Positions 16,949-64,000 of a DNA stretch of 64,000 bases are shown here, one piece after another (within the stretch, counting starts at the first letter, position 1; every line of letters begins with the position of its first letter). The translations under genes and the position numbers were made by a program. This DNA is from a virus (Duplodnaviria > Caudoviricetes), in the IMG/VR virus record IMGVR_UViG_3300028624_000004, positions 64,001 through 128,000 of that record, one strand, 5' to 3'. Below the pieces are notes generated by a model. It was not told where the DNA came from. It saw only the letters and a program-made list of their open reading frames with translations, and made no database searches.

Positions 16949-19105
16949 ATGCGTTTTCACGTTCTAGGCTTGCCACATACAGTTTCCTCCAAAGAGTATG
17001 TCGCCTGCTATTCGTCAGATACAGAAATAATGACAGAAGACGGCTGGAAGTCCATTAAAGAATTAGCCGAGGCAAATATAAAGATAAAAATAGCTACACT
17101 AAACCCAGCGATAAATCAGGTAGAATATTATTACCCACATAAATGGATTATCAATCAATACAACGGAAAGATGTTTCATCAAACCGGAATGTCAATTGAC
17201 TTTCAGATTACACCAGAGCATAGAATGTGGTGTAAGACTGTAGCAGACGATAGGAATAAAAGAAGTTATAGATTTATAGAAGCGCAAGATGCTCCGAAAG
17301 TTGTTTATCATAAACGGGACTTTCCGTGGGTAGACGGTGAGGAAGTTGAATACTTTGAGTTACCTGAAATTACTGATGGTAATGGAAATATAAGACCGCA
17401 GAGAAGGTTTAAGATGGATTCGTGGCTTAAGCTTTTCGGTATTTATATAACCGAAGGCAATATTGACGGCACGAGATATAAGACGAAAAATGGTATTATT
17501 AAGGGCAAGCACACAGTTTTTATTGCCCAAGAAAAATCAAAAAGCAGAGAAATAATCCAATCGTGGCTTGACGAACTCTGCATTAGGTATAAAAAGTCAT
17601 CTCGTGGGTTCCATATACACGATACTCAGTTCGCACACTGGTTTTCCCAATTTGGGAAAGCGCGTGTAAAACATATTCCACATTGTTTTAAAAATCTTTG
17701 TAAAAGACAACTAAATATACTATTAAATGCGATGATATTGGGCGACGGTTGGACCAATGGTATTAACAAGAGATATGTTTCGTTTTCTAAAAATTTAGCT
17801 AATGATTTTAATGAAATAGCATTAAAGCTAGGATATGCCGTAACTCAGTATGATGATCCAGATCCAAATATTCCCCGCCATATAGTTACTCTTTCTGATA
17901 ATTGTAAGGAACCGTTGGTCAATTCGCAGAAAGATTTCAGAAAATATGTCAATTATATAGGTAAAGTATATTGTCTTGTAGTTCCCAACCATATAGTTTT
18001 TGTAAGAAGAAACGGAAAGGCTTGTTGGAGCGGCAACTGTGCCTACACCCAAAAGGTAGTTAAATTCTGCAAAATGATGTCTGCTCGTGGACATCAGATT
18101 ATCCATTATGGACATGAAGACTCTAAGATTGACGGTGAGCATGTTTCAGTTCTCACAAACGATGACTTTATGAAAACCTATGGAACCCATGATTGGCGAA
18201 AGACATTCTTCAAGTTTAACGTCAATGACCACGCATATAAAACCTTTTACAGTAACGCTATACGAGAAGTCGGACTAAGAAAACAGAAAAACGATTTCAT
18301 ATTACCATTTTGGGGATCGGGAGTAAGACCCATATGTGACGCCCATCCCGACTTGATATGCGTTGAGCCTGGAATTGGCTACGCCGGGGGGCATTGGGCT
18401 AGATTCAAGGTATTTGAATCATATGCGATTTATCACGCCTATTATGGTCTTGCCTCAGTGGGAACATGTAAGCAAGACTGGTACGACGTTGTTATTCCTA
18501 ATTACTTTGACCTTGATGATTTTACCTTTAAAGAGCAGAAAGAAGACTACTTCTTGTTTCTTGGAAGAGTATATTCGGGAAAGGGTATTCATGTTGCGGT
18601 CCAAGTAACTGAAAAGTTGGGAGTTAAGCTAAAGGTAGCTGGTCAAAGCACTCTTCAAGAGTGTGGTTATAAAGAAATACCCAAGCATGTGGAGTTTATC
18701 GGTTACGCAGATGTAGAGAAGCGCAGGGAGCTTATGGCTAACGCTAAGGGTGCCTTTGTTGCTTCGATGTATAATGAGCCTTTTGGTGGCGTACAGGTCG
18801 AATGTCTGTTATCAGGTACTCCAACCATCACAACCGATTGGGGCGCTTTTACAGAAAACAATATTCATGGATTGACGGGCTATCGTTGCCGCACCTTTAA
18901 TGATTTTGTTTGGGCAGCTAATAATATATCAAATATAAAGCCGCAAAATTGCAGAGCCTTTGGTGAGAATTTTTCATTGGATAGAGTTGCTAAGCTTTAT
19001 GAAAAATACTTCACTGATATTCTAAATATATACGGAAAGAAGGGCTGGTACGAGCAATATCCCATAAATCTTGACGATTATGCTCGTATTATTCCACATG
19101 AGTAA
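16949..19105 (+). CDS. GT4-family glycosyltransferase interrupted by an intein
   Basis: Exteins rejoin as ...KEYVA/CAYTQKVVKF...; FLGRV..GKG, EPFGGVQVE and GTPTITTDWGAF motifs. Confidence 0.9.
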   Translation: MRFHVLGLPHTVSSKEYVACYSSDTEIMTEDGWKSIKELAEANIKIKIATLNPAINQVEYYYPHKWIINQYNGKMFHQTGMSIDFQITPEHRMWCKTVADDRNKRSYRFIEAQDAPKVVYHKRDFPWVDGEEVEYFELPEITDGNGNIRPQRRFKMDSWLKLFGIYITEGNIDGTRYKTKNGIIKGKHTVFIAQEKSKSREIIQSWLDELCIRYKKSSRGFHIHDTQFAHWFSQFGKARVKHIPHCFKNLCKRQLNILLNAMILGDGWTNGINKRYVSFSKNLANDFNEIALKLGYAVTQYDDPDPNIPRHIVTLSDNCKEPLVNSQKDFRKYVNYIGKVYCLVVPNHIVFVRRNGKACWSGNCAYTQKVVKFCKMMSARGHQIIHYGHEDSKIDGEHVSVLTNDDFMKTYGTHDWRKTFFKFNVNDHAYKTFYSNAIREVGLRKQKNDFILPFWGSGVRPICDAHPDLICVEPGIGYAGGHWARFKVFESYAIYHAYYGLASVGTCKQDWYDVVIPNYFDLDDFTFKEQKEDYFLFLGRVYSGKGIHVAVQVTEKLGVKLKVAGQSTLQECGYKEIPKHVEFIGYADVEKRRELMANAKGAFVASMYNEPFGGVQVECLLSGTPTITTDWGAFTENNIHGLTGYRCRTFNDFVWAANNISNIKPQNCRAFGENFSLDRVAKLYEKYFTDILNIYGKKGWYEQYPINLDDYARIIPHE
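17006..18037 (+). mobile_element. Intein (344 aa) with LAGLIDADG homing endonuclease
   Basis: Block A CYSSDTEIMTEDGWK; block B ITPEHRMW; LAGLIDADG-like FGIYITEG and AMILGDG; C-terminal VYCLVVPNH..FVRRNGK..WSGN/C. Confidence 0.9.

Positions 19106-30201: not shown

Positions 30202-30202
<1 letters not shown>
29075..30202 (+). CDS. Fibre adaptor-like protein; paralog of 11240
   Basis: N-terminal NTAFG/NVGIG repeats; C-terminal motifs shared with 11240; TAATG coupling to 30202. Confidence 0.75.
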
Positions 30203-34500
<4,298 letters not shown>

Positions 34501-54922: not shown

Positions 54923-55146
54923 ACGAAATAATATGGACACCGATAATGTCAAATACTATGGGAGTATTTGGATATAAGCCAATGAGACTTATTAAATATA
55001 GCAATGAATGTTATTACAAACTTCCTCTTATTGATATGGGATATAGTGGTCATAGATACACACCATCCGATGATCGCCCGTTATTTAACACAGAAGAAGC
55101 ATGCCAGAAGTGGTGTGATGAAGAGAACACAAAGGAAACCAAATGA
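54919..55146 (+). CDS. Hypothetical protein
   Basis: AGGAG RBS; ATGA overlaps. Confidence 0.6.
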   Translation: MNEIIWTPIMSNTMGVFGYKPMRLIKYSNECYYKLPLIDMGYSGHRYTPSDDRPLFNTEEACQKWCDEENTKETK

Positions 55147-55361
55147 AACCTCTCCCAAAACGAATCACAAACAAAATTTTATCTAATAAGAAACTTTCGG
55201 AGAATGATGCTGTCCAATTATGTATGTGGGGATATTTTGGCATCGCCGGCAGTCTTAAAAGAAATAGACAAAATAACTTCACACATTGTGGCGCAGGCAT
55301 TGAATGTGCCTTGAGAGAGGCATATCAACACGGTAGAGATTCTGTAAAGGAAACTAAATGA
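55143..55361 (+). CDS. Hypothetical protein
   Basis: AAGGA RBS; ATGA overlaps. Confidence 0.6.
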   Translation: MKPLPKRITNKILSNKKLSENDAVQLCMWGYFGIAGSLKRNRQNNFTHCGAGIECALREAYQHGRDSVKETK

Positions 55362-55546
55362 AACCGACTCAAGAGCAAATTGACCGAGCCGTAGAGCTAC
55401 GGGAAGAGATTATCAGCATATCCCGAGCCATTGATGCTATGGGAGTAACCGCAGCAGACTTGAGACATGCTCAGATCAAGCTGAGTTCCGCCGAAAGGGG
55501 CATGGATGACTTTATAGCCAAGGCACAGAGAGGGGAGATAGAATAA
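55358..55546 (+). CDS. Hypothetical protein
   Basis: AAGGA RBS. Confidence 0.6.
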   Translation: MKPTQEQIDRAVELREEIISISRAIDAMGVTAADLRHAQIKLSSAERGMDDFIAKAQRGEIE

Positions 55547-55800
55547 TGGCACTCATGGACTACGACTACAACGACCCCAGCAGAGTTGCTGAACGGGAAG
55601 AAGCCGAGAAGGAGCGGCAGAAGTGGCTTGACGAGGATATTGAATTGAAACTTACGGAAAATGTAAGAGGATTCAACACAGGCATTAGAGTATTCTTCAT
55701 CAAACGAAGAGACTTGATAGACCTTATCAACGGCTCTGGTGCCTTGGATGACATTAGGAATAGTTGTAGTCGAAGCGATTTATATCATATTATTATATAA
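55546..55800 (+). CDS. Hypothetical protein
   Basis: TAATG coupling. Confidence 0.6.
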   Translation: MALMDYDYNDPSRVAEREEAEKERQKWLDEDIELKLTENVRGFNTGIRVFFIKRRDLIDLINGSGALDDIRNSCSRSDLYHIII

Positions 55801-55840
55801 ATCTCTGCGATTTATATAATATGAGGTTTAAGGAAACTCA

Positions 55841-56020
55841 ATGCCAACCGGAAAAACATGTGGTAACTGTCAGCATTTCATTAGAATAAAAAATCCCTCT
55901 TTTCAACATGGAGGGCGTAACGGCATCTGTGATATATTTGACTATAATTGTAATACTGATTCTTCATACGCAAAGCAATGCGATAAATATAAAGCATCTT
56001 ATAAAGGTAAAGAGAAATAA
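55841..56020 (+). CDS. Small Cys-rich metal-binding protein (59 aa), not in ORF track
   Basis: AAGGA RBS; MPTGKTCGNCQHF...GIC...NC...QC. Confidence 0.65.
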   Translation: MPTGKTCGNCQHFIRIKNPSFQHGGRNGICDIFDYNCNTDSSYAKQCDKYKASYKGKEK

Positions 56021-56059
56021 ACCTATTGATTTTTGTAATAAACTACTTACAATAATTGT

Positions 56060-56272
56060 ATGAAGAATGGATACGATACCCCAGAAGCATACGCTCGTAT
56101 GAACTACCTCATTGATGTGGTTCGCGGGAACATGTCTTGGGTCAAGTGGGAGTTTCTTGACGAGGACACTAAGAGGATATACAGAGAAGAAGCTTCGTTA
56201 GTCGAATATGTCATCACAGAAGATGACTTGGATAACTTTGAAGCAGCCATGGAACTACGGGAGAAAGCATGA
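56060..56272 (+). CDS. Hypothetical protein
   Basis: TTGATT-16-TACAAT promoter ends 6 nt before the ATG. Confidence 0.65.
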   Translation: MKNGYDTPEAYARMNYLIDVVRGNMSWVKWEFLDEDTKRIYREEASLVEYVITEDDLDNFEAAMELREKA

Positions 56273-57414
56273 AATTCTATACACTTTACTCCAGAACCTC
56301 AAACGGCTCCATACAGGAGTGGACCATTCATGTAGAAGGTAATAGCTTCTTCACGGTCGAAGGTATCAAGGGTGGTAAGATGACTACCTCCAAGCCCACC
56401 GTCTGTGAAGGAAAAAACATTGGTAGAGCCAATGAAACCTCGCCAGAAACCCAGGCGCTCCAAGAAGCCAAGGCAAAGTACAAGAAGAAGGTCGATTCGG
56501 GCTACTACGAGAAGCTGGAAGATATTGACATCGAAAAGTTTACGGAGCCGATGCTCGCTCATAAGTACGGAGAGCATGAAGTTGAATTCCCATTAGCGTC
56601 ACAGCCTAAACTTGACGGATGTTTATCAGGAGATACTGTTGTCAATCTTAAAAATAATGGGAAGAAGACACTTAAAGAGATATACGACAGTAAAATAGAA
56701 GATGAAGTTTTATCATATAACGAAAAGAAAAGAAGGAATGAATATAGAAAGATAATGTGGGATTATGTAAAGCCAAATATGGCTAGACAGGATATGAGCG
56801 TCACTGGTTGGAATGTAATGGCTGTCAAGTCGGCGCATGGTGCAGGATTGAATGTTGGAAATTCGATGACTAACTGTAAGAAAGCAATTGAAAGAGTATG
56901 GAAAGCTGCTAACCCAGAATGGGAAAAGAAAACTGATCCATATACCGACAAGACAATATTTCCATATACTTGGAATGCTATTAATAACTCGACTGCAAAG
57001 GAACATCTGAGCTTCATCGGAACGACATGCGCTGTGTTCTTGGGGCATGGATCGGGAGACATTATGTTGGAGACGATGCTTAATGATGCTGAAGCAAGGT
57101 GGGTTGATAGTGGAGCGTATAAGAAGAATAACTATGCGTGCTACTACCTTTCGCTCTCAATGTTTCAGGCTGGGGGAGAGCGTTGGAAGAAATGCTTAAA
57201 TACCATAATTCCCTACACCGTGGAAACCCAAGATGCTTCACAGGGCTGCGCTCGCGGCTCGTGGAACTGGGAAGGGCAGTCGTGGCATGGATCAAGCATA
57301 GGAAGAGTGTTGACAACTTGCTATAATATCCTAAACCTTGAAGTTGCTTATCGCTATGTTCAGGTCAACCCCAATGCCGAAATACAGAAAAAACTGAAAT
57401 CAACACTAAAGTAA
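56269..57414 (+). CDS. Chimeric ORF: ATP-dependent DNA ligase N-terminus + intein N-fragment + prenyltransferase/terpene-cyclase-like C-terminal fragment
   Basis: GKNIGRANET, PMLA and QPKLDG (ligase motif I); CLSGDTVV...VLSYN (intein block A); then WDY...DMSVTGWNVMAVKSA...GSW...GRVLTT..IL.LEV.YRY. Confidence 0.75.
   Translation: MKFYTLYSRTSNGSIQEWTIHVEGNSFFTVEGIKGGKMTTSKPTVCEGKNIGRANETSPETQALQEAKAKYKKKVDSGYYEKLEDIDIEKFTEPMLAHKYGEHEVEFPLASQPKLDGCLSGDTVVNLKNNGKKTLKEIYDSKIEDEVLSYNEKKRRNEYRKIMWDYVKPNMARQDMSVTGWNVMAVKSAHGAGLNVGNSMTNCKKAIERVWKAANPEWEKKTDPYTDKTIFPYTWNAINNSTAKEHLSFIGTTCAVFLGHGSGDIMLETMLNDAEARWVDSGAYKKNNYACYYLSLSMFQAGGERWKKCLNTIIPYTVETQDASQGCARGSWNWEGQSWHGSSIGRVLTTCYNILNLEVAYRYVQVNPNAEIQKKLKSTLK
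56620..56757 (+). mobile_element. N-terminal intein fragment only (about 46 aa)
   Basis: CLSGDTVV.L..G...LKEI....VLSYN; no block B TxxH and no terminal HN/GN. Confidence 0.7.
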
Positions 57415-57440
57415 TCGTCAGTTGTGCCGATACTAAGTGT

Positions 57441-57671
57441 ATGAGAACAGATAGAGTAGAACCCATAATGGTTATAAGAAAAGAAGTAAGGTTCCCAAAA
57501 CGGGAACCTTACTTTCGTGTTGATAGGGACGAAGATTCCCTTGATGATTCTATTAAGAAATATGTTGATATTGCCAAGAATTGTCCTATAGATAAGGAAG
57601 CCCTTGAAATGCTTTTGAGAATAGAGTTAGGAGACGATATAACAAATCAAATTAAAATATTCTATAAATAG
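57441..57671 (+). CDS. Hypothetical protein
   Basis: 76-aa ORF. Confidence 0.55.
   Translation: MRTDRVEPIMVIRKEVRFPKREPYFRVDRDEDSLDDSIKKYVDIAKNCPIDKEALEMLLRIELGDDITNQIKIFYK
57663..57670 (+). promoter_or_regulatory. T4-type late promoter motif TATAAATA
   Basis: Exact motif upstream of a GGAG RBS. Confidence 0.6.
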
Positions 57672-57688
57672 GTATGGAGTAACTTATT

Positions 57689-58240
57689 ATGGGATTCAAA
57701 AATTTCTATAAAGAAAGCGTTAGAAAGTCAATAATAAAGAGAGAGGCTGAAGGTGACTTTGGAGACGAAGCCCAAGCAATGAGTTCTGCCGAAATATCAT
57801 ACGCATACCCAAAAACAAACAAAAACAAATTAAAATGGTCAGAGGCTAGGGGATTTATAAAGCCAGATGGTAAAGTTGAAAGAATTGGGGATATGGGTCA
57901 TGAAGATTTCGCCAGAGATGTTGGTTATCCAATCACGGTGGACGGCAAGCTAGTTACTAAAAAGTTTCCTGGGTCAAAAACTCTTGCCAAATATACTGGT
58001 CTTGTTCGCTGGTCGCCAGAAACGGCTTCTTTCAGTGTATATCTTCCAATGACTCTGGAGCAAATAAAGACTATTAAAGAAATAGTCAAGTCTTATGGAT
58101 ATAAAGACTTAATGTTGGATTATCAAGACAAGAATGGGAACATGCAATTGATCGAATTCAACGATTCAGATCCTAGTAAATTCAATGCTAGAATGACAAA
58201 AGTCCAGAATGAAGTCAATGACAAGAAGTTTGGACAATAG
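57689..58240 (+). CDS. Late hypothetical protein, possible internal head protein
   Basis: MGFKNFYKES N-terminus; RGFIKPDG....H..FA motif. Confidence 0.7.
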   Translation: MGFKNFYKESVRKSIIKREAEGDFGDEAQAMSSAEISYAYPKTNKNKLKWSEARGFIKPDGKVERIGDMGHEDFARDVGYPITVDGKLVTKKFPGSKTLAKYTGLVRWSPETASFSVYLPMTLEQIKTIKEIVKSYGYKDLMLDYQDKNGNMQLIEFNDSDPSKFNARMTKVQNEVNDKKFGQ

Positions 58241-58246
58241 CGAATA

Positions 58247-59554
58247 TTAAGGCATCCACGGCATATCTGTTTTAGCCTCGTATTCCTTTTCTTCTTCTAT
58301 TTTTACTTTATTTAAGAAGCCAGAGTTACTAACACTATCAAACTCTTTTGCTTTTTCTTTTCTTTCTTGATATGCTTTGTATATGTTAGAAGAGGAACCA
58401 TTCATATACTTTCTTTTCCTATCTGTCTCATCGTCACTTACTTCAAATTCTATTATAAATTTTGTAAATAATCCCTCTTGGCTTTGGACGTCTATATATG
58501 CGCCCATTGATATTGCATAATCCATGCACATAGCAAGCCCAAGTCCGTGTGTGTCAACATGGTCGTCTTTGGTTGTGAAGTTTGGCGTAAATAATTGTTC
58601 CATGACCTTAGAAGAAATTCCCTTGCCGTTGTCTTCTACATAAAGAGATTTTTTAGAAGAATCGCCATATATTTTTATCTTTAATTCATCTCTCATATGG
58701 GAATTGTGGTCAATGGCATTATTGACTAAATTCATTAATATCTGATGAAGAAACATGGGGGAGTGACGACATAAGAAATCAAGGGAAGTATAATCAACTT
58801 CTATTTGTGACGGTCTTATATTTTTTCTTATTGAGGAATTCAATAAAGCTACAGAAACCATGGCTTTAATGGTGGATCCAACATTAGACCTATTCATATC
58901 ATATTTCTGAAGGTACTTTATATTCTTACTAAGATTATCTACAATATATATACACTGTTCGGCAGATGCTTCTATTTCTTGAATTTTATCTTGTATAAAC
59001 TTAAAGTCTTTGCCGTTAAGCTGGGTTTTCAGTGTTAGAAATTGCAACATCATATTGGAGACATTGCGAATTATTCCTAACCACGGAGCTACCTCATGAT
59101 TAACTCCAGATATGACATTCTTAAGGTTTCGAGAGTTGCTATGGGCTATGTTCAAGCGAAAGGAAATTTCTTCTTGCTTATCTTTTAAATGCTTCTTTTC
59201 CTTCTCTTCTTTGATTAAATCATCAAGTTCTTTTTGATGATAGAAAAAATCTTTTTTGGTTATATTAATGGCTTTAAATTTTTTATAGTTGATATAAAAA
59301 TATAAGAAGGATACGGTTAACGATATTACGCCATTAAGTATAGAAATTGTATCAAATAAGTTTTTAGACGCATCAATGACAGCCGATTGCTGTTCTTGAT
59401 ATACCATACTTCTAACTTGGCTCTCGTAATTTTTCTGTACGATATGACAGATTGAATACAGAGTTGTATATGACAACAAACAAAACAAAAAAGAAATTAA
59501 GATTGAATATCTTAATTTTCTTATTAACTTAAAAATTTCTTTAAAGGTTCCCAT
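58247..59554 (-). CDS. Membrane sensor histidine kinase
   Basis: Two TM helices; H-box GVNHEV; N-box LMNLVNNAIDH; G1 VEDNGKGI; F-box LFTPNFTTK; G2 GLGLAMC. Confidence 0.92.
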   Translation of the reverse strand: MGTFKEIFKLIRKLRYSILISFLFCLLSYTTLYSICHIVQKNYESQVRSMVYQEQQSAVIDASKNLFDTISILNGVISLTVSFLYFYINYKKFKAINITKKDFFYHQKELDDLIKEEKEKKHLKDKQEEISFRLNIAHSNSRNLKNVISGVNHEVAPWLGIIRNVSNMMLQFLTLKTQLNGKDFKFIQDKIQEIEASAEQCIYIVDNLSKNIKYLQKYDMNRSNVGSTIKAMVSVALLNSSIRKNIRPSQIEVDYTSLDFLCRHSPMFLHQILMNLVNNAIDHNSHMRDELKIKIYGDSSKKSLYVEDNGKGISSKVMEQLFTPNFTTKDDHVDTHGLGLAMCMDYAISMGAYIDVQSQEGLFTKFIIEFEVSDDETDRKRKYMNGSSSNIYKAYQERKEKAKEFDSVSNSGFLNKVKIEEEKEYEAKTDMPWMP

Positions 59555-59877
59555 AGTAAACTTTGTTTGCTGATGTAATAGTATTTTTTCTCTTCAAGAG
59601 TATTTAATACCTCGTGTTCAACGCTTCCCGTTATAAACATTATTTTACCAATATTGGACTTATTCTTATCAGCAAATTCAATTCCATTTCTACCATTTTG
59701 CAATTGAACATCTAGTATAGTATAATCGAACTGGTTGTGTGTCTTCAAAAGCTCTTCAGCTTCCTTATAGGTTTTTGCGTAGTGGATATCAATATTCCCA
59801 CTGTCTATGAACATCTTAATGTATTCTATAACTTCCTTAGCAAAAAAGCTATGGTCTTCTAAAAATAAAATTTTCAT
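59524..59877 (-). CDS. Single-domain response regulator (CheY-like receiver)
   Basis: ILFLED, phospho-acceptor ILDVQL, NGIEF, FITG, ISK. Confidence 0.88.
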   Translation of the reverse strand: MKILFLEDHSFFAKEVIEYIKMFIDSGNIDIHYAKTYKEAEELLKTHNQFDYTILDVQLQNGRNGIEFADKNKSNIGKIMFITGSVEHEVLNTLEEKKYYYISKQSLLWEPLKKFLS

Positions 59878-60305
59878 TACGGCGTCCCCATGATAATAGT
59901 TGCTATTGTTTTTATTATTTCCACAATATGTGGCGCTATTGCAACAGCTATAGCAGATATTATACCCACGACAAGGGTCTGGAAATTCCAGTACTTCCCT
60001 GCCATTTCCTTAAGCTTATTTTTCTTTGGCGGCTCAACTGTATTAATGTTCTGGACAATAACTGGAGCAACAGCAGTAGTGTTGCCATGTTCTCCATTAT
60101 CGTCAATAACATGAACTATTATCCCCTTAAGAATATCAGTTAGCTCCTTATATTGGTCACTCTGACGCTCTTCAGTGGTAAATTCATTTAAGATGTTGTG
60201 TATCTTAAACTTAAGATGGACAAGTTCGACAGAAGCCTTTTGCCACTTTGAAATCTCCGTGGGGAGGGCTGGTATGTTGGCTCGTGATGGATACTTCTTT
60301 CCCAT
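59877..60305 (-). CDS. Membrane protein with C-terminal TM segment (start 60305, MGKKYPSR...)
   Basis: GGGGGA RBS; TAATG overlap with the receiver gene; hydrophobic C-terminus. Confidence 0.75.
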   Translation of the reverse strand: MGKKYPSRANIPALPTEISKWQKASVELVHLKFKIHNILNEFTTEERQSDQYKELTDILKGIIVHVIDDNGEHGNTTAVAPVIVQNINTVEPPKKNKLKEMAGKYWNFQTLVVGIISAIAVAIAPHIVEIIKTIATIIMGTP

Positions 60306-60353
60306 TATTCCCCCATAATGATATACTATATTTATACTATTATGGGGGAATAA
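60305..60353 (-). promoter_or_regulatory. 15-bp perfect inverted repeat sequestering the RBS, with a TATAAATA late promoter (60329-60336) in the loop
   Basis: TTATTCCCCCATAAT (60305-60319) / ATTATGGGGGAATAA (60339-60353). Confidence 0.75.
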
Positions 60354-60370
60354 ATGTTTCAATTGTTACA

Positions 60371-60745
60371 TTATTCTTTGCCACCATGTTGGTTGCGTCT
60401 TCTTTCGATTATATTATCCCTTACTCTTTCTCTCAATGGCTCATTATTCTCACGACGGTCCTCTAATCTTTCGGGAAGGTTTCTTGCTTCTGGGAACAAT
60501 ACGCCATTTTTAGCTATTATCATTCTCATAACGTGAACCTGTAGCTTTGGGTGTCCTTTAAGGACTTCTTTCAACTCTTGTATTTTGACTTCCATTGCTT
60601 TACGGTGTTCTTCCCTAAGCTTCTGGATTTCTAGTACCTTTCCCTTTACTTCCTGTGGTAATGTTACTTCTGGTTCGTTTGCGACCTCACATGAGTATGT
60701 TGAGGCTACTAATAAGAACGCTAGTAATGTTATGATATATTTCAT
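60371..60745 (-). CDS. Secreted helical protein
   Basis: Signal peptide MKYIITLLAFLLVASTYS-C; AAGGAG RBS. Confidence 0.75.
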   Translation of the reverse strand: MKYIITLLAFLLVASTYSCEVANEPEVTLPQEVKGKVLEIQKLREEHRKAMEVKIQELKEVLKGHPKLQVHVMRMIIAKNGVLFPEARNLPERLEDRRENNEPLRERVRDNIIERRRNQHGGKE

Positions 60746-60963
60746 ATATTATCTCCTTACCCATATTTACGCACAATTCTTCAGTTTATTAATGTAGTAT
60801 CTTTCCTCACTTGATAAAAGATTATAAACTATAGTGTTTTTATTTCCTACATAACACATAAATTAAATACATTTTTAGGGGTATTTTTAGGTTACTGGTA
60901 TGGTGGATTTTAGGACTTGACTTCGGCTCTGAAGTCATAGAATATACTAGTAAGGAACTCTTT

Positions 60964-61299
60964 ATGAACCCACCTGATGGTATTCCTCCCAAAGCACTCA
61001 ATAGACCCATCATGCCGTCTGAGGTTGTTAACCTCAAATGTAAGCATATTCCTGATATTGTTTTCAATATCTTCAACGACCACATTGTGTCAGCATGGGA
61101 TGGTAGAAAAGCAATTGTAAGGCAGGAACATGTCGTTAGTGCGCTTTTGGTTACTGAGAAGTTTACGCGAGAAGAGATTTTCCGTAAGCACATATTGGAC
61201 ATAGAAGAGATTTATAGTCGGGAAGGCTGGAAAGTCGAATTCGACAAGCCCGGTTATAACGAGGGGTATGGGGCATTTTGGACCTTTACCAAGGCTTAA
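60964..61299 (+). CDS. Conserved phage hypothetical protein
   Basis: IP..VF..FN..I and LD.E..Y...GWKV.FDKPGYNE motifs. Confidence 0.75.
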   Translation: MNPPDGIPPKALNRPIMPSEVVNLKCKHIPDIVFNIFNDHIVSAWDGRKAIVRQEHVVSALLVTEKFTREEIFRKHILDIEEIYSREGWKVEFDKPGYNEGYGAFWTFTKA

Positions 61300-61300
61300 C

Positions 61301-61720
61301 ATGAACTACGACGAGGATTATGTCAAGGATCTGGAACTCCGGATTGAGCGTCAACAGGAGCAGATTGATAAATACTCTATGTTCATCAAGCGACTTGACG
61401 AACTCAAAATCAAAATGTCGATGCAGGACTGTTCGCAGTTCATTAACCCAAAGGCATTTATCAAGTGGCTTGAAAATAGTAGCAAGTGGAAGCTATTTGA
61501 CACGATTGAAGATTCTCATGGTAAGACTGGGCAATTTCGTCATGCAAACGGTCGTAAGTTCTCTATTCGCGTTAAAGCATATGACAAGGGGGCAGAACAG
61601 GCTCAGTTACTTGATGTAGTCAATGCATTTCAGCATGTATGGGACACATGGCTTTATGACCACAAAGGATGTGGTGTTATTTCGCTGATTATTGATATAA
61701 TGGAGTACGAAGATGATTAA
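61301..61720 (+). CDS. Hypothetical protein
   Basis: Start at 61301, immediately after the upstream stop. Confidence 0.65.
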   Translation: MNYDEDYVKDLELRIERQQEQIDKYSMFIKRLDELKIKMSMQDCSQFINPKAFIKWLENSSKWKLFDTIEDSHGKTGQFRHANGRKFSIRVKAYDKGAEQAQLLDVVNAFQHVWDTWLYDHKGCGVISLIIDIMEYEDD

Positions 61721-61937
61721 TGACCCTCTACAGGAACTTGTTAAGCATTGTCACTCAATAGGGTTAAAATCCTATTATGAACTGGCATGTCACGCTGCTT
61801 CAAAGAAGCTGGCGGTTTATGTATTTCGTGAGGAAACTTATAAAAAGTTCCTTGGGCGAATACCCAAAAGTATCCAGGGGTTTGATGTAGAATATAAATT
61901 AGCAAGGAAATATCAAGGACAAATATATGTCAGATAA
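61713..61937 (+). CDS. Hypothetical protein
   Basis: GGAG RBS. Confidence 0.55.
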   Translation: MINDPLQELVKHCHSIGLKSYYELACHAASKKLAVYVFREETYKKFLGRIPKSIQGFDVEYKLARKYQGQIYVR

Positions 61938-61954
61938 TCTATATAAATAAGGAT

Positions 61955-62887
61955 ATGCCAAAGATAATAACAACCGAAGATTTCATACGAAGAGCAATCG
62001 AAAAGCATGGCGACAAGTATGACTACAAAAATACAGAGTATAAAGGATCACGCAGTAATATTACCATAACATGTAAGAAACACAATGTTTCATTTTTGCA
62101 ATCTGCCCACCATCACTTATCGGGAAAAGGTGGATGTAAAATATGTGCCTCCAACACTAATAGATCAAATGCAGAAACCTTTATAAAGAGGGCGATGGAG
62201 ATACATAATCAAAAGTATGATTACAGCAATGTAGTGTATGAAAATAACGAAAAGCGAGTTTGCATTATATGCGACAAGCACGGTGAATTTTGGCAGTCTC
62301 CTGGGAATCATATTAGTGGTAGGGGATGTCCTGAATGTGCAAAAATTACTATTGGAAGACAAAAGATATCAAACACCAAGGATTTCATTCATAAAGCAAT
62401 GGAAAAACATGGAAACCTTTACAACTATTCAGTGGTAGAATATAAGAATTCACGTGAAGTAGTTGATATTATATGTCCAGAACATGGTACATTTCGCCAA
62501 ACACCAAATTTACACCTGTGTGGATCGGGATGTCCTAAATGCATAAAACAAAGTAGCGGCGAAACTTTCATAAGAAAATTTCTTGAGAGTAATAATATAA
62601 AGTTCATAGAGCAGGTAAAGTTTCCGACATGTAGGCATATAAAGTTGTTATCTTTTGATTTTCTTATTGAAGGTAAAAATGTCCTCATTGAATATGACGG
62701 CGAACAACACTTTAAACCTGTGAAATATTTTGGAGGCAATGTTAAATTTGAATACCGTAAGAAACTAGATTCTATAAAAAGTGAATGGGCGAAGAATAAC
62801 AGATATAACCTCGTTCGCATACCTTATGACATGTCACATAATGATATTGTTGAAAAGTTATATAATACGTTAGTTTTTAGTGCTTGA
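61955..62887 (+). CDS. Putative homing endonuclease: zinc-binding repeats plus PD-(D/E)xK nuclease
   Basis: Three FI..A..KHG.KYDY...I.C..HG.F.Q....H..G.GC..C repeats; LSFDF...IEYDGEQH; TATAAATA at 61942-61949. Confidence 0.8.
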   Translation: MPKIITTEDFIRRAIEKHGDKYDYKNTEYKGSRSNITITCKKHNVSFLQSAHHHLSGKGGCKICASNTNRSNAETFIKRAMEIHNQKYDYSNVVYENNEKRVCIICDKHGEFWQSPGNHISGRGCPECAKITIGRQKISNTKDFIHKAMEKHGNLYNYSVVEYKNSREVVDIICPEHGTFRQTPNLHLCGSGCPKCIKQSSGETFIRKFLESNNIKFIEQVKFPTCRHIKLLSFDFLIEGKNVLIEYDGEQHFKPVKYFGGNVKFEYRKKLDSIKSEWAKNNRYNLVRIPYDMSHNDIVEKLYNTLVFSA

Positions 62888-62919
62888 TTTATTTGTTCAC
62901 ATAGCATATAATAAAATAT

Positions 62920-63213
62920 ATGAATAATATCCAAAATGACGATGTAGAAGAATTGGAATCTCAAATATCAAAAGAAGAAGATCCCGAAAAAAAACAATGG
63001 ATGAAATTTGCACTTGATATGATTTTGGGCAAGAAATCCAAGAATGCCCGTGTCCTCAAAGAAGTTAAAGAAATAGACAAGAGTCTTAGGACTGCTATGG
63101 CAATGGTTTTAAATTTTTATGCGGAAAATGAAGGGCAGTTCAATCAGAAACTTCTCGAAGATGTTGCAACACTTATAATAAAAAGATCCAAATTGGTAAA
63201 AAATCTAAAATGA
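62920..63213 (+). CDS. Hypothetical protein
   Basis: TTGATT-17-TATAAT promoter ends 7 nt before the ATG. Confidence 0.65.
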   Translation: MNNIQNDDVEELESQISKEEDPEKKQWMKFALDMILGKKSKNARVLKEVKEIDKSLRTAMAMVLNFYAENEGQFNQKLLEDVATLIIKRSKLVKNLK

Positions 63214-63698
63214 TATTAGTAGCTGCAATGGACCCAATGGGGATTATAGGTAAAAACGGAAAGCTTCCTTGGAACTTCCCCCAAGACCTTAGTTATTTTA
63301 AGAAACTTACAAGTGGTCATATAGTGGTCATGGGTCGCAAGACATGGCAATCACTACCTGTTAAACCGCTTTCTAATAGGGTTAATATTGTGTTTTCGCG
63401 CATTATGTTGCCCGAAGATGCCCCAGGAGCCATAATAGTAAAAGACATCGAAGAATTACAAAAAGCCGTAATAGAAATTCCAGACAAAAATATATTCCTC
63501 ATTGGTGGCGCTCAATTATATACAGAACTTATTGACTGGTGCGATGATATGGTTATAACTCATGTAAAGAAGCGCCACGATGGTGATACATATTTTCTGT
63601 GGGATTGGATGCAATGGGAACCCGTTGCCGATGTTTATCAGGACGCCGACATACGAATTGTACATTATAAAAGGATAATATATGGAAGTACAGAATAA
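63210..63698 (+). CDS. folA: Dihydrofolate reductase
   Basis: IG..GKLPW..PQDL..FK..T, VVMGRKTW.SL, PL..R.NIV, IGGAQLY, GDTYF. Confidence 0.95.
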   Translation: MILVAAMDPMGIIGKNGKLPWNFPQDLSYFKKLTSGHIVVMGRKTWQSLPVKPLSNRVNIVFSRIMLPEDAPGAIIVKDIEELQKAVIEIPDKNIFLIGGAQLYTELIDWCDDMVITHVKKRHDGDTYFLWDWMQWEPVADVYQDADIRIVHYKRIIYGSTE

Positions 63699-64000
63699 TT
63701 TACCGGAATCATTTGTTATTTCGGAGTCAAAAATAAATACTCAAACAGTTGACAGACTGATAAAAACTATTAATGGCAAGGATTGGGCAAGTGTTTGGAA
63801 GAAGCGCAATCTTAATGATTCCCCTAGCGATGTTGAAAAGATTCCAGAAATAGTTGCTGAAGTGACAAATGTAAGTAATAATGTTGACATGTCAACTCTT
63901 GAATACAATAAGACTCTTTGCAGTAAAGACATTAACCATCTATACGAACATACGCATGTCACGGTAGCATTTATCAATGTCACAAGAAACTTTGTGTTTT
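63682..64000 (+). CDS. ThyX-like (flavin-dependent thymidylate synthase fold) protein, 3'-truncated by window
   Basis: AAGGA RBS; frame open to the window end; LYEHTHVTVAFINVTR resembles the ThyX EH...TF....VSR motif. Confidence 0.5.
   Translation, partial: MEVQNNLPESFVISESKINTQTVDRLIKTINGKDWASVWKKRNLNDSPSDVEKIPEIVAEVTNVSNNVDMSTLEYNKTLCSKDINHLYEHTHVTVAFINVTRNFVF

Follow-up and report, generated by a model that had tools for sequence, protein, structure and literature searches.

A candidate three-component phosphotransfer module with a T4-type late-promoter motif in uncultivated large phages

Two-component systems are regarded as cellular sensing devices, and phages are known to exploit or inhibit those of their hosts. 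Here we describe a locus at which a phage appears to carry such a system of its own. It lies on the minus strand, at positions 58247 to 60305, of a 64,000-nucleotide stretch of viral DNA (hereafter the window; positions 64,001 to 128,000 of IMG/VR record IMGVR_UViG_3300028624_000004). Within about 2.1 kb it encodes a small protein with a predicted membrane anchor, a stand-alone receiver (REC) and a histidine kinase (HK). Our preferred explanation, to which we assign a probability of roughly 0.6, is that the three genes form a three-component phosphotransfer module that is specific to phages, passed on as a unit among uncultivated large T4-like phages (those with a gp23 capsid) and transcribed from a T4-type late promoter. 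Our literature searches found no description of a lytic-phage lineage that possesses a complete kinase/receiver pair.

The closest described counterparts of the phage HK are the class-I (HisKA-type) kinases HK853, ZraS, WalK/YycG and EnvZ. In these, the histidine sits in a DHp hairpin, and the CA domain after it has the N, G1, F and G2 boxes; the phage HK has the same layout. Its predicted structure superposes on the DHp and CA domains of class-I kinases, and HisKA-type NCBIfam models align with it from the H-box onward, far below their cut-offs. The phage HK differs from class-I kinases in that it has no Pfam DHp match and no sensor domain, in that its family has zero to two transmembrane (TM) helices, and in that it occurs only on phage-like contigs. 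Its H-box also reads N-H-E-x-[SA]-P-W, with a proline four residues after the histidine (H+4), where HisKA kinases have Thr/Asn-Pro.

For the receiver, the natural comparison is with CheY, Spo0F, DivK and LovR. Like the phage REC, these are single domains with an acidic pocket and the Asp, Thr and Lys of the active site, but no output domain. However, the phage REC shows no specific similarity to any of them and has family motifs of its own. A Spo0B-like or Hpt partner for it is not present in the record. The set of three proteins is most reminiscent of LiaFSR, BceRS-AB and VraTSR, which share with the window the combination of an accessory membrane protein and a two-TM kinase with a minimal loop. 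The resemblance ends there: the phage accessory protein is unrelated by sequence to LiaF and VraT (it has no family match), the phage regulator lacks a DNA-binding domain, the TM helices of the kinase are dispensable within the family, and the system is encoded by a phage.

An earlier reading of the DNA, the original prediction, had described the locus as an operon of an intact phage-borne HK, a stand-alone receiver and a membrane protein; the open reading frames (ORFs), the overlaps and the catalytic boxes are as it described them. Gene 1 (59877-60305, minus strand, like the other two) encodes an orphan protein of 142 aa, counted from its ATG. Its stop codon shares a base with the start codon of gene 2 (TAATG at 59877, read off the sequence), which encodes the 117-aa REC (59524-59877; ORF and PF00072 match). 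The start of gene 3 (58247-59554; ORF and HATPase_c match), which encodes the 435-aa class-I HK, lies inside gene 2, so that the two genes overlap by 31 nucleotides (nt).

That these genes belong together is apparent from their relatives. A search of 5.8 billion proteins with the kinase returned a discrete clade of about 30 proteins (E values from 1e-181 to 1e-39), then a gap, after which cellular kinases start at 1e-15 and weaker. The kinase protein of the window itself was found on 14 contigs. The trio occurs in about 17 distinct metagenomic loci (L001-L004, L008, L009, L012, L016-L023, L026 and L027; contigs of 20-332 kb are included), and because it recurs in so many distinct loci its linkage is far beyond chance. 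At every locus of the kinase family with enough upstream DNA, the order is small protein, REC, HK, on one strand, with the genes overlapping or a few bases apart. This order holds down to about 30% HK identity, and a reverse search that started from the most distant homologues of the small protein led to the same arrangement. Hence, the linkage in related phages on which the original prediction had staked itself is indeed kept.

The distribution of the clade is also unusual. It was not found in 185,579 species genomes (one genome per species). Among the 50,697 phage records of INPHARED there was no DNA match, and only generic HKs matched, at about 26% identity. Scans of IMG/VR with single proteins yielded nothing, and a profile scan of the same database added only two further viral contigs with the kinase clade. 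Contigs that carry the module encode DHFR, thymidylate synthase, dCMP deaminase, HNH and GIY-YIG nucleases, UvdE and ligase; they look like large lytic phages. One of them (G001; 332 kb, 92% complete) also carries gp23, as does the record from which the window is taken (E 2.5e-95). The window and its relatives have a DHFR/p97/p150 neighbourhood in common. Between relatives, DHFR is 33-39% and the kinase 30-39% identical, and such similar identities fit long vertical inheritance within a phage clade. Taken together, the sequences show the trio as an obligate unit restricted to phage-like contigs, in which gene 1 is linked no less tightly than its two partners.

The HK matches the Pfam family HATPase_c (E 1e-18; nt 58442-58759). 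Its AlphaFold2 (AF2) model, with a predicted local distance difference test (pLDDT) of 83.9, has two N-terminal helices, a long helix (residues 53-175) that runs into the DHp domain, a second helix (181-215) and an alpha/beta CA domain (residues ~221-371, from the model and the HATPase_c match), followed by a tail of about 60 aa of low confidence. Foldseek matches the model to the DHp and CA domains of ZraS, HK853, WalK, CpxA and BceS with probability 1.0. The predicted phospho-acceptor, placed by H-box alignment, is His153 in DHp helix 1 (codon 59096-59098). The H-box N-[VI]-I-S-G-x-N-H-E-x-[SA]-P-W-[LI]-G is present in all 38 family sequences that cover the region, with Ser and Ala at H+3 in roughly equal numbers, and the N, G1, F and G2 boxes (N275/N279, D308-N-G-x-G312, F322 and G337-L-G-L340) are invariant in 39 sequences.

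In contrast to this catalytic core, the N-terminal part of the kinase varies. Hydropathy and AF2 place two TM helices in the window's HK (TM1, residues ~18-36, nt 59447-59503; TM2, residues ~66-84, nt 59303-59359), separated by a loop of about 30 aa. Its closest kin share this arrangement, whereas other members have one TM helix, two closely spaced ones or none, and the close relative at L001 has lost both. Between 32 and 170 residues precede the H-box. A Pfam scan and a TM/hydropathy survey of the family kinases revealed no sensor domain, whether extracytoplasmic, PAS, GAF or HAMP. The original prediction had cast the operon as a sensor of an envelope or environmental cue; since the kinase has no sensor, that part of it is unsupported. 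If there is an input, it must be intramembrane, mediated by a protein or metabolic (ATP), or else no more than the start of late transcription.

The receiver matches PF00072 with 34.6 bits (cut-off 30.2), and alignment identifies Asp56 (codon 59710-59712) as its probable phospho-acceptor. The residues E/D7, D8, D56, T83 and K104 are kept in 16 of 16 family sequences, and the aromatic switch position (Lys-3) is not conserved. Motifs peculiar to the family (D-H-x-F after beta1, L-D-V-x-L-Q-N-G-K-T-G and T-G-C) are located on the beta1-alpha1, beta3-alpha3 and beta4-alpha4 elements and on alpha5. All receivers are single domains of about 113-135 aa. As they have no output domain, they should signal through protein contact or phosphotransfer. 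A profile search of the PDB found receiver domains only, the best of them generic (E 1e-7), and PADLOC gave two marginal matches for the REC and none for the HK. We also considered the cREC family (PF20274), a divergent receiver of jumbo phages that is linked to NAD/ADPr and never to a kinase (PMC7824862). This identification was rejected: the match reaches 18.5 bits where the cut-off is 27, and the receiver described here always stands beside a kinase.

The protein encoded by gene 1 is the least familiar of the three. AF2 predicts a conserved helical hairpin (residues ~20-71, nt 60093-60248; pLDDT 87-96), a disordered charged linker (residues 74-107) and a C-terminal hydrophobic helix (residues 108-139, nt 59889-59984), which is predicted to be a tail anchor. 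Kyte-Doolittle hydropathy is 2.29 over residues 110-128 and exceeds the TM threshold in 12 of 14 members of the family. In alignments of 14 and of 42 members, the N-terminal part is conserved (S-K-W-Q-x-A-S ... F-T-x-E-E-K-Q-S-x-x-Y-K-x-L), the charged linker is variable, and the C-terminal stretch is hydrophobic and ends in G-(G/T)-P. The near-invariant residues are aromatic or small (W21, S25, F42, Y52). A profile search of 1.84 billion representatives found just 49 members, all of 88-205 aa and never fused to another domain.

No family in Pfam, PHROGs, NCBIfam or PADLOC accounts for this protein. A Pfam scan of 42 members at E<=1 gave no consistent family (DUF7032 matched in seven of them, at E>=0.026), a structure search with the model found generic helical hairpins only (Z<=5.6), and the best look-alike in the ESM Atlas scored 0.76. 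We examined whether it could be a phosphotransferase of the Hpt or Spo0B type or a phosphatase of the Spo0E or CheZ type, and rejected both, as it has neither an invariant His nor an invariant acidic/amide pair. Its combination of a hairpin with a TM helix could also suggest a membrane-bound anti-sigma factor acting by partner switching. A Sigma70_r2 gene lies near the module in G001 only, and not in the window's record (G000) or in G002; we dropped this idea for want of conserved linkage and give it very little credence.

The leader of the operon is what points to late transcription. In T4, TATAAATA is the late-promoter motif (-10 element). An exact copy lies at 60329-60336 on the minus strand, about 23 nt upstream of the gene 1 ATG, and in 15 of 16 family loci an exact copy precedes gene 1 by no more than about 35 nt. 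Across the window's record, 29 of 36 exact copies of TATAAATA lie within 80 nt upstream of a start on the same strand, even though 94% of the DNA is coding, and the starts concerned include those of the structural block around gp23. The motif pattern, together with the gp23-type phage in which it occurs, is good indirect evidence for T4-type late transcription of the module. The late expression that the original prediction had expected is thus well supported at the level of sequence.

The window's copy of the motif is embedded in an unusual structure. It lies in the 19-nt loop of a perfect 15-bp inverted repeat (60305-60353, minus strand; the hairpin is also given as 60303-60356), whose 3' arm pairs with the GGGGGA Shine-Dalgarno sequence of gene 1 (folding energy -25.4 kcal/mol). 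In L001, the leader has the same design; the letters of the stem differ and the pairing is retained. The T4 genes e and soc likewise combine a hairpin that sequesters the ribosome binding site with an internal late promoter. With TATAAATA inside a hairpin that pairs with the Shine-Dalgarno sequence, translation should be limited to transcripts that begin at the late promoter. Unlike in T4, however, this layout is confined to the window and L001. Most relatives have a terminator-like hairpin directly 5' of the motif, in many cases a GC-rich hairpin with a T-run immediately ahead of it, which would insulate the operon against transcription from upstream.

How could such a module work? Late in infection, the three proteins would be made together, with gene 2 translationally coupled to gene 1. 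The sensor-less kinase could autophosphorylate on His153 roughly by default, or under the influence of the ATP supply or of the small partner. The phosphoryl group would then pass from His153 to Asp56 of the stand-alone receiver, and the phosphorylated receiver would act by contact. The surface of the receiver is conserved across very divergent phages, which argues for a conserved partner; the co-translated hairpin protein is an obvious choice. The likeliest partner would be the cytoplasmic helical hairpin of the tail-anchored gene 1 protein; the output would then arise, in the late period, on the inner side of the cytoplasmic membrane. We name the small protein as the target of the receiver as a tentative guess, to which we give somewhat less than even odds. 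Complex prediction with REC and hairpin residues 12-76 (both with alignments) gave a score of 0.30, the mark being 0.32, which counts neither for nor against binding. The physiological output of the module is likewise a matter of guesswork, and its late timing is what the promoter motif leads us to infer. The kinase-to-receiver chemistry is, as far as the conserved residues can tell, intact, and purifying selection on it is strong; the lineage is apparently confined to phages.

Several observations weigh against this explanation. None of the 16 family kinases matches a Pfam DHp family (HisKA PF00512, HisKA_2, HisKA_3, His_kinase or HWE), even at E<=1, and hence their DHp domain is atypical. 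Every member of the family has Pro at H+4, where the phosphatase motif of HisKA kinases has Thr or Asn; given what is established about that motif, the family kinases may have little or no phosphatase activity. That they are active and pass on the phosphoryl group is a prediction from conserved catalytic residues. In two of 14 small-protein members the C-terminal helix falls under the hydrophobicity threshold. No polar or catalytic residue is invariant in the small protein, which is the fastest-evolving of the trio (19-30% identity, versus 35-53% for REC), as could also be expected of a protein that faces the host or is purely structural. Finally, the record is only about 76% complete, and other partners could be encoded elsewhere.

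One could also argue that the small protein is not the output of the module but its input. It would then be a membrane regulator or scaffold that binds the DHp domain of the kinase, in the manner of LiaF with LiaS or Sda with KinA, and the target of the phosphorylated receiver would be a conserved protein of the host, for example a motor, a protease adaptor or a polymerase-associated factor. Sensor-less kinases need a partner for any regulation. With two TM helices and a short loop, the window's HK is built like the intramembrane-sensing kinases, a group that relies on accessory membrane proteins; BceS is among its structural matches; and the hairpin has the size of known DHp-binding inhibitors. 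In liaFSR, too, the accessory gene comes first. For these reasons, a small protein that regulates the kinase in a LiaF- or Sda-like way is nearly as good a reading as one that serves as the receiver's target. However, the membrane anchoring of the kinase is not conserved, as the loss of both TM helices in L001 shows, no host target can be named, and the TAATG coupling suggests, weakly, that the small protein is matched in amount to the receiver rather than to the kinase. As a whole, with its host target, we consider this explanation unlikely. The lysis timing proposed in the original prediction is another option: the tail-anchored protein would be similar to a holin, antiholin or pinholin and would be gated by the phosphorylated receiver, by analogy with T4 lysis inhibition. 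It fits a holin or antiholin in its small size, in its one predicted TM helix, which is rich in small residues, and in its predicted expression from a late promoter. For phage N4, a pinholin with one TM helix and a regulatory region in the cytoplasm has been proposed (PMC12642591), which lends the idea some plausibility. Neither a T-type holin nor a T4-type lysozyme was found in the record (PF00959 and PF11031 were searched), but with 76% completeness missing lysis genes carry little weight. The protein ends two to five residues past the hydrophobic helix, without the charged C-terminal tail typical of holins, and does not occupy the position of a lysis-cassette gene: no endolysin or spanin gene is adjacent at any locus, where the neighbours are DHFR, ligase, Metallophos and S4-domain genes. 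A kinase without a periplasmic domain could not sense a periplasmic superinfection signal either. Lysis timing therefore seems to us a distinctly improbable role.

Two further explanations dispense with a self-contained circuit. The module could interfere with host signalling if the phage kinase phosphorylated host regulators, or if the receiver drained host kinases or Hpt proteins, as part of a late reprogramming of the cell. Single-domain receivers can serve as phosphate sinks. There is also precedent for phages that target host two-component systems, which they do with other proteins (PMC10714779). Yet a cognate kinase and receiver that have long been inherited together, along with a third phage gene that is likewise obligate, suggest a circuit complete in itself; the hosts of such divergent phages probably differ, whereas the surface motifs of the receiver are strongly conserved; and late timing would be odd for host take-over. 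We regard interference as very unlikely. Alternatively, the block could be a fragment of a bacterial two-component system, misassembled or recently captured and not under selection. The local G+C content (0.33 at 58-60 kb) is indeed below the genome mean of 0.40, and the genes lie on the strand opposite to most of their neighbours. But the module stretch is present in 14 activated-sludge runs of 2019, and contigs from two sludge runs span window positions 55000-64000, across the junctions of the block, with 0 differences. The two runs possibly belong to the same sampling campaign as the source of the window; they still show a contiguous block. In addition to the 14 contigs that encode the protein, the relatives have a syntenic phage neighbourhood, the operon carries the phage's own late-promoter motif, the clade occurs in no bacterial genome searched, and the catalytic residues are kept at 30% identity. 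The misassembled bacterial fragment that the original prediction had named as a danger is ruled out by the identical sludge contigs and the absence of the clade from the species genomes, and the passenger explanation as a whole is already contradicted by the data, so that we attach practically no probability to it.

If the phosphotransfer module preferred here is real, what is new about it is its restriction to phages, the sensor-less kinase with an unclassified DHp domain, the obligate orphan partner with its predicted tail anchor, and the late promoter; the components themselves are known two-component proteins. Such a module would mean that the phage has put phosphotransfer to use for a step in its own late programme, and it offers a possible orthogonal kinase/receiver pair together with a new receiver-binding effector. 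A bolder version is that, in a clade of virulent T4-like jumbo phages, a default-on kinase, the receiver and the tail-anchored protein form a late decision circuit that governs when or how a terminal membrane event (lysis, lysis delay or superinfection exclusion) takes place. Circuit and event together are speculative, and we think them unlikely. If true, it would make the module the first timer or switch based on phosphorylation that a lytic phage encodes in full.

Immediately upstream of the module and outside its conserved part lies a gene for a 124-aa protein (60371-60745, minus strand, ORF). Its N-terminus resembles a signal peptide or that of a lipoprotein (Cys19), its body is charged and helical, and it has no family match in Pfam, PHROG, NCBIfam or PADLOC. 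The only homologue found is that of the closest relative, L001 (44% identity); the other loci have the terminator-like hairpin in its place. Contigs from RNA libraries (a biofilm metatranscriptome) match short pieces of the HK gene, the small gene and this upstream gene at 99-100%, with the highest depth on those that match the upstream gene. They are a hint of transcription; DNA carry-over is possible, and the contigs carry no information on strand or level. The map of TATAAATA copies in the record is a usable list of candidate late genes, which within the window include those starting at 57689 and 61955.

The window is part of a linear viral record of 177,540 bp, estimated as ~76% complete, in which just one receiver and one HATPase_c domain are found. 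Hpt domains were searched for and none was found, which in a record of this completeness is little proof of absence. DHFR and a ligase fragment adjoin the module, and the record has collagen-like tail-fibre genes. One of these, a 1432-aa collagen-repeat gene at 30202-34500 on the plus strand, forms a G+C island (0.51 versus about 0.40) with a strong GC skew. At 16949-19105 on the plus strand lies a gene for a 718-aa fusion protein, whose N-terminal part weakly resembles thymidylate synthase (phrog_85) and whose C-terminal glycosyltransferase is 74% identical to one of a T4-like cyanophage (Synechococcus phage ACG-2014f). The region around it otherwise has no DNA match among deposited phages.

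Two of the related contigs, L089 (15474-16325, minus strand) and L090 (15698-16549, minus strand), carry, along with the module, genes for a 283-aa flagellin (Flagellin_N and Flagellin_C) and a small EF-hand-like protein. A flagellar link of the module was considered on this account and rejected, as no flagellin is detectable in the window's record. Near the module in G001 (L002 1-7119 and 14926-16338) are genes for an IS605 OrfB/Cas12f-like TnpB, an ECF-type sigma factor (r2 and r4) and a WGR-PARP protein. The ligase fragment beside the module in the window is a 381-aa ORF (56269-57414, plus strand) that matches ATP-dependent DNA ligase over residues 10-118 only (phrog_114). Directly after its K-L-D-G motif it continues with C-L-S-G-D-T-V-V, which resembles the N-terminus of an intein, and then with unrelated sequence. 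In L090 (19925-21005), the ligase is split across two adjoining genes with Intein_splicing/Hint matches, and the window's ORF may be a ligase split by a (split) intein.

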